From Candidatus Bathyarchaeia archaeon (GTDB lineage: Archaea; Thermoproteota; Bathyarchaeia; 40CM-2-53-6): a stretch of DNA of 64,000 nucleotides. Numbering within the stretch: the first letter of the stretch is position 1; each line of letters opens with the position of its first letter. The notes beneath the pieces are model-generated. The model saw nothing but the letters and a program-made list of their open reading frames with translations. It was not told where the DNA came from and searched no databases. Where the stretch lies: positions 480,001-544,000 of the forward strand of contig JBEKFP010000001.1 in NCBI GenBank assembly GCA_050013255.1, given 5' to 3'. Below, one piece after another: positions 44,981 through 45,175 of this stretch. A program made the position numbers and the translations under genes.

Positions 44981-45175
44981 TGGTGCGGGGGAGGGGATTC
45001 GAACCCCTGAACCCCTACGGGACGAGGTCTCTTAACATCCAGGTTTGATGTTCCTGAGCTTCACGTACGTATGGTTTGGATACGTCTCGCGCCTTTGACC
45101 TGGCATCGCCCCCTCGGCATCCGAGAGTTTGGCAGTGGAGGACTAACGCACGCTTTAGGCGTGGCCTACCCCCGC
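44981..45175 (-). tRNA. trnL: tRNA-Leu(CAG) with four introns (8/9, 14/15, 30/31, 37/38) and encoded CCA
   Basis: Exons 45175-45168, 45134-45129, 45104-45086, 45059-45053 and 45028-44981 join to GCGGGGGT|TGCCAA|GCCAGGTCAAAGGCGCGAG|GCTCAGG|ACCTCGTCCCGTAGGGGTTCAGGGGTTCGAATCCCCTCCCCCGCACCA (88 nt, class II cloverleaf); BHB/BHL motif at each junction. Confidence 0.9.

Follow-up and report, generated by a model that had tools for sequence, protein, structure and literature searches.

A tRNA-Leu(CAG) gene with four predicted introns and two micro-exons in a Bathyarchaeia archaeon from peat and soil

Within the 64,000-nucleotide stretch of DNA analysed here (the window), 195 nucleotides of the minus strand very probably comprise a functional, single-copy tRNA-Leu(CAG) gene with four protein-spliced introns. 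The host is an uncultured peat/soil Bathyarchaeia archaeon, represented by a metagenome-assembled genome of 2.46 Mb on three contigs with 8.55% estimated contamination. Removal of four segments from positions 45175-44981 (-) leaves five exons (8 + 6 + 19 + 7 + 48 = 88 nt; Table 1) that give a class II tRNA-Leu(CAG). ARAGORN recognizes the joined exons as an 88-nt tRNA-Leu(cag), the identity proposed in a first-pass annotation of this DNA. The joined tRNA has a 7-bp acceptor stem (GCGGGGG/CCCCCGC), the T-loop TTCGAAT and an encoded CCA, and a long variable arm (14 nt), discriminator A73 and the leucine anticodon CAG identify it as a class II tRNA-Leu. The first-pass annotation had placed the introns at positions 8/9, 14/15, 30/31 and 37/38, each with a BHB motif, and its coordinates, helices and bulges were all reproduced on re-derivation. 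The five exons are colinear on one strand within the 195 nt, which rules out a split or permuted tRNA gene.

Table 1. Features of the tRNA-Leu(CAG) locus in order of reading; positions are those of the window
Feature	Position	Strand	Description
Promoter-like element GCATTAGCTTTATGT (BRE/TATA-like)	45225..45239	-	about 27 nt upstream of the first base of the leader
5′ leader	45176..45198	-	23 nt; GCGGGGT then a CYTGGCT-like block; in 17 orthologs
Exon 1	45168..45175	-	8 nt, tRNA positions 1-8; joined straight to exon 2 in L027 and L029
Intron 1	45135..45167	-	33 nt, position 8/9; canonical hBHBh′ with 2-bp outer helix; 24-33 nt in the orthologs that have it
Exon 2	45129..45134	-	6-nt micro-exon, positions 9-14; its first four bases are the central helix of the intron 2 motif
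Intron 2	45105..45128	-	24 nt, position 14/15; HBh′ with 7-bp inner helix and no outer helix
Exon 3	45086..45104	-	19 nt, positions 15-30
Intron 3	45060..45085	-	26 nt, position 30/31; relaxed motif; 16-28 nt in orthologs
Exon 4	45053..45059	-	7-nt micro-exon, positions 31-37; bears the anticodon CAG
Intron 4	45029..45052	-	24 nt, canonical position 37/38; hBHBh′; 20-28 nt, in 17 of 17 orthologs
Exon 5	44981..45028	-	48 nt, position 38 through the encoded CCA

Standard finders miss this gene, as the first-pass annotation had anticipated. ARAGORN called no tRNA in the raw window, Rfam returned nothing at the gathering score, and an Rfam tRNA search of the whole genome down to E = 10 gave matches from which this locus was absent. 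When introns were allowed, ARAGORN read the raw precursor as a tRNA-Ser(gga) with a 101-nt intron, a mis-call that we rejected. Genes of this kind create an annotation gap: genomes that contain them seem to have incomplete tRNA sets when searched with standard finders. A 67-aa ORF overlaps the locus, but it cannot be a gene because the intron lengths of orthologs differ by 1-2 nt, and it has no Pfam hit. The nearest recognisable downstream neighbour is a pyruvoyl-dependent arginine decarboxylase (window 43670-44218 (-), Pfam E 3e-59). There was no Pfam match for the ORFs between it and the tRNA gene or for those upstream of the tRNA gene, and congeners show no conservation in the 3′ flank of the gene.

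All four introns follow the same plan. The four bases at the 3′ end of the intron pair with exon bases -6 to -3 and a hairpin internal to the intron adjoins that helix, so each junction folds as two 3-nt bulges around a 4-bp helix. In intron 1, the outer helix GC/GC joins G1C2 with G10C11, and the central helix (GGGG/CTCC) pairs G3-G6 with the 3′ end of the intron itself; the bulges are GT/A and AC/T and the inner helix is GGC/GTC. Intron 2 combines the central helix TGCC/GGCG with the bulges AA/A and AT/G. The central helix of intron 3 (CGCG/CGTG) has all 4 bp intact, with the bulges AG/A and AA/G. Its motif is relaxed in that the inner helix is offset by 2 nt, and in most orthologs this helix is canonical and directly adjoins the central helix. 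Intron 4 has the inner helix ACATC/GATGT, uses the anticodon stem as its outer helix, and carries one invariant C34-A mismatch in its central helix.

We parsed the locus with our own program. Its only inputs are a seed for the T-arm, a 5′ strand that can pair with the 3′ strand of the acceptor, general cloverleaf rules and a BHB rule, by which intron bases -3 to -6 must pair with exon bases -6 to -3 and a helix within the intron must lie next to that pairing. The top solution is the same set of four introns. With the interior of the gene shuffled, any solution at all appeared in 7 of 150 trials, each scoring lower than the native sequence (best 8.65 vs 10.4), and shuffling the introns in place yielded a solution in one trial out of 150. 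The four-intron structure is more than chance.

The orthologous locus was identified in 17 genomes of the same genus, all of which parse to the same five-exon layout and an 88-nt Leu-CAG. These congeners share 7 distinct mature sequences, with at most four differences, and have 13-14 distinct sequences per intron, of 16-33 nt. Across the 17 orthologs, standard pairs fill 416 of the 448 cells (93%) of the central helix and the first three inner pairs. Each of the four introns has compensatory changes in its inner helix; four of these changes fall within the first three inner pairs and more lie deeper, and those in intron 2 affect three inner-helix positions. The motif is kept in relatives while the intron sequence drifts, a pattern by which these segments are identified, from comparison of the genomes, as archaeal BHB introns.

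This pattern also bears on whether the locus could be a decaying pseudogene that has accumulated insertions and goes unprocessed, with CUG read by tRNA-Leu(UAG). The Leu-UAG gene at C1:211.6k could indeed wobble-read CUG, and contigs from RNA libraries gave no spliced form. However, the exons are nearly invariant in 17 relatives while the inserts diverge freely, the BHB pairing is maintained through compensatory changes, a promoter-like element and a leader are conserved, and two lineages have removed an insert with single-base precision. We therefore regard a pseudogene as very improbable. The RNA-library contigs at 44940-45240, from four peat/soil runs, comprise unspliced forms from relatives and exon-5 pieces that end at the exon border, with no joints; they are contigs rather than reads and may include DNA carry-over. 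Their breaks coincide with the boundary between conserved exon and variable intron and are therefore no sign of splicing. We infer that the tRNA-Leu(CAG) precursor is spliced.

Natural alleles that have dispensed with an intron show where the borders lie. Intron 1 is absent in L027 and L029, and intron 2 in L023 and L024, where exon 2 joins exon 3 directly; in both cases the absence falls exactly at the predicted junction, and thus four of the eight borders are fixed to the base. An uninterrupted 88-nt Leu-CAG gene was found in 16 genomes from two sister genera (g2 and g3) of the same family, where it scores 54 bits with the Rfam tRNA model (RF00005). It aligns with the joined exons without gaps (78 of 88 positions identical), and of its ten differences most are exchanges of paired bases in the stems of the anticodon and T arms. 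These genes leave very little room for the reading that there are fewer or differently placed introns (three and an aberrant D-loop, for example) and that the micro-exons are artefacts of a forced cloverleaf. Our parser does list alternatives in which the borders of intron 2 or 3 move by 1-2 nt, but it has zero solutions with three or fewer introns at this locus; the intron-free alleles fix the borders of introns 1 and 2, and gap-free colinearity with the sister-genus genes fixes those of all four.

It is least credible of all that the inserts derive from mobile DNA or from faulty assembly and are not introns removed from RNA: a 27-nt repeat of a Leu 3′ end elsewhere in the genome does indicate that tRNA-Leu genes are integration targets, but the inserts are 16-33 nt long, have no terminal repeats and each carry a BHB, and the locus is near-identical in 16 peat/wetland DNA runs (16 study codes, possibly from few sampling campaigns) and in independent assemblies from Danish soil and the SPRUCE peat site.

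The history of the four introns can be approached through related genera. In genus g14, the locus L071 (genome G062, about 140 nt around Leu-CAG) has a single 31-nt intron at 7/8 with the central helix CGGG/CCCG and is without introns 2-4, a state intermediate between the intron-less and the four-intron genes. Leu-CAG was not found in genus g15, in which the matches are Leu-GAG. The simplest reading, based on parsimony and made without a species tree, would be that the gene passed from no introns to one and then to four, after which two independent precise losses occurred. One orthologous gene may thus be traced within one family from no introns through one to four and by precise loss to three, and a series so closely spaced is of the kind needed to ask how archaeal tRNA introns come and go. 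Separately, in G063 (C4:4147-4214), two inverted partial Leu-CAG copies (L072/L075) abut beside masked bases, and these are probably an assembly artefact.

The splice motifs of neighbouring introns share bases. G10-C11 belong both to the outer helix of intron 1 and to the central helix of intron 2, and C27-G28 belong both to the central helix of intron 3 and to the anticodon stem that intron 4 uses as its outer helix. The motifs therefore overlap (introns 1/2 and introns 3/4), and the four cuts are probably made on successive conformers rather than on one fold. Thermodynamic folding of the naked precursor favours the motif of intron 2 only (central-helix pair probability 0.97), and a fold with all four BHB motifs is less stable than the minimum free energy structure by about 20 kcal/mol.

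The genome encodes two EndA paralogs, each with both Pfam domains. The alpha paralog (190 aa, G000 C2:171513-172085) keeps the Tyr/His/Lys catalytic motifs, and its best structural match is the catalytic alpha subunit of the Aeropyrum pernix enzyme (3P1Z_B, E 1.5e-38), with which it aligns end to end (PDB 3P1Z/3AJV; PMC3241643). Its K43/K45 align with K44/R46 of the Crenarchaea-specific loop (CSL). In the second paralog (187 aa, C1:301907-302470) the catalytic His is missing; it is a candidate for the structural beta subunit and would take the beta role of the A. pernix enzyme. Together these sequence features predict an EndA of the (alpha-beta)2 heterotetramer type with a Crenarchaea-specific loop. 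The Crenarchaea-specific loop confers broad substrate specificity (Hirata et al., PMC3241643). The first-pass annotation had suggested a broad-specificity endonuclease, and the alpha/beta pair and the loop lysine are consistent with this, but the suggestion that such an enzyme is a trait of the lineage does not hold, as the pair is present order-wide, including in genera with an intron-less Leu-CAG. Given that the EndA type is common to intron-free and intron-rich genera, it makes the intron load possible without accounting for the burst of introns. The catalytic EndA scores 81-85 bits against Pfam tRNA_int_endo in this genus and 93-97 bits in neighbouring genera and families; the lower scores hint that the enzyme may have diverged in this genus.

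RtcB is encoded in the genome as well, and so is an archaeal RNase P RNA, which scores 175 bits. Following the established archaeal pathway, the conserved TATA-like promoter would give a precursor with a 23-nt leader, the (alpha-beta)2 EndA with its Crenarchaea-specific loop would cut in both bulges of each motif, RtcB would join the exons, and RNase P would remove the leader, the CCA end being already encoded. RtcB occupies one open frame of 1039 aa (G000 C1:110968-113778 (-)), in which about 480 aa are inserted after position 60 of the RtcB profile, and the insert is probably an intein.

The element GCATTAGCTTTATGT is near-invariant in the 17 same-genus orthologs, and the sequence between it and the leader varies. 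To judge from its sequence and spacing it is likely to be an archaeal promoter, and the position of its TATA-like element would place the transcription start at the first bases of the leader. The leader lies directly upstream of the gene and is 22-23 nt long in 17 of 17 orthologs (22-27 nt across L020-L036 and L071). Its GCGGGGT nearly repeats the 5′ strand of the acceptor and is hence complementary to the acceptor 3′ strand, with which it is predicted to pair (probability 0.4-1.0), and the CYTGGCT-like block is complementary to AGCCAGG of the D-loop. We tried to place a fifth intron between the two GCGGGG copies and rejected it, as no BHB can be drawn there. The leader is absent upstream of the intron-less Leu-CAG genes of genera g2 and g3 and present in genus g14 (L071) alongside the single acceptor-proximal intron. 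In this genus and g14, it occurs wherever the acceptor-proximal intron is or recently was. The Leu-GAG gene of the same genome, which also has an 8/9 intron, is preceded by a degenerate leader (ACGGGTG...CCTGG).

One could imagine, though we think it unlikely, that the leader acts in cis on folding and came into being along with the acceptor-proximal intron. By holding the 3′ acceptor strand and the D-loop of the tRNA, the leader would free exon 1 to form its splice motif, which would otherwise compete with the acceptor stem. In folding predictions for this genome, intron 1 has a central-helix probability of 0.89 with the native leader, up from 0.0, and intron 3 one of 0.95, up from 0.01; on a summed measure the native leader performs better than shuffled leaders in 14 of the 17 congeners. 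Taken by itself, intron 1 averages 0.29 with native leaders vs 0.26 with shuffled ones, and the effect fails in genus g14 and in the Leu-GAG of this genome. The predictions for the leader as a helper of BHB folding are thus mixed and do not establish such a role. If true, this would be a leader-assisted splicing route for introns inside or beside the acceptor stem.

The tRNA-Leu(CAG) gene is paralogous to Leu-GAG, Leu-UAG and Leu-UAA of the same genome. Leu-GAG has introns at 8/9 and in the anticodon loop, Leu-UAG (TAG; C1:211593-211724 (-)) has introns at 14/15 and about 30/31, and a Leu-UAA (TAA) locus is also present. Two introns of Leu-CAG are thus shared with paralogs and have similar intron ends, that at 8/9 with Leu-GAG and that at 14/15 with Leu-UAG. 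Similarity searches of this genome with the gene found no second Leu-CAG gene; as this is a metagenome-assembled genome with the contamination given above, "only gene" means that none other was found. A 27-nt copy of a Leu tRNA 3′ end is located at C1:198054-198080 (-), 13.5 kb from tRNA-Leu(UAG) and on the same strand. A displaced copy of a tRNA 3′ end is the usual signature of an element that has integrated into a tRNA gene.

Introns are widespread in the tRNA set of this genome, in agreement with the first-pass annotation. Rfam detects only about 20 tRNAs, and almost every one of them exceeds 90 nt. A census with our own parser and ARAGORN returned 20 genes, about 18 of them plausible: one intronless, ten with one intron, five with two, Lys called with three, for which a parse with four is probably better, and two (Leu-CAG and Pro-GGG) with four. 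A second "Pro-GGG" at C1:310177 and an 86-nt "Glu" are clearly wrong calls. More than 20 further tRNA-like 3′ ends were left unparsed and genes with an interrupted T-loop cannot be seeded, and for this reason we give no figure for introns per gene. The tRNA-Pro(GGG) gene (G000 C3:122293-122469 (+)) is parsed with four non-canonical introns of 29, 20, 21 and 31 nt, and ARAGORN accepts its joined form.

The gene is of a known kind at an unusually high intron count, and not a record. Reviews give three introns as the maximum for an archaeal tRNA gene (PMC4033280), and the first-pass annotation had taken four to lie beyond the known maximum. That claim falls, as up to five intervening sequences in a single tRNA gene are reported for Asgard archaea in a preprint of October 2026, and Pro-GGG of this genome is also parsed with four.

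Among known systems, tRNA genes with multiple introns are described for the Thermoproteales Pyrobaculum, Thermofilum and Caldivirga (Sugahara et al. 2008, as reviewed in PMC4033280 and PMC4090602), and intron spread among tRNAs has been described for the same order (PMC4090602). The present genome is similar in the predicted (alpha-beta)2 EndA with a Crenarchaea-specific loop and in the related introns of paralogous tRNAs; the sharing of the 8/9 and 14/15 introns between Leu paralogs resembles the Thermoproteales spread. It differs in having four introns rather than the review maximum of three, and in that its host is a mesophilic peat/soil member of the Bathyarchaeia, not a hyperthermophile. 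Positions 8/9 and 14/15 are missing from the example lists of the reviews, but these lists end in "etc.", and we therefore do not claim the positions as new. The Asgard archaea are alike in having many introns per gene (up to five) with BHB motifs, many of them in the D-arm, in their repeated gains, and in that standard annotators miss them. They belong to another phylum, however, and here the states of 0, 1, 4 and 3 introns are found for one orthologous gene in one family. Our literature search found no paper on tRNA introns in Bathyarchaeia. The tRNA-Leu(CAG) gene, with four introns and exons of 6 and 7 nt, extends heavy tRNA-gene fragmentation to mesophilic Bathyarchaeia of peat and soil.

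Two further loci in the genome were noted. At a Trp-like locus (G000 C2:632656-632884 (+)), 229 nt lie between intact acceptor strands and the T-loop is interrupted (GGGTTCAAA ... ATCCCTT). For tRNA-Lys(UUU) (G000 C1:291271-291457 (-)), one "intron" of the three-intron parse is 58 nt long and includes a second CTTTTAG hairpin resembling an anticodon loop.
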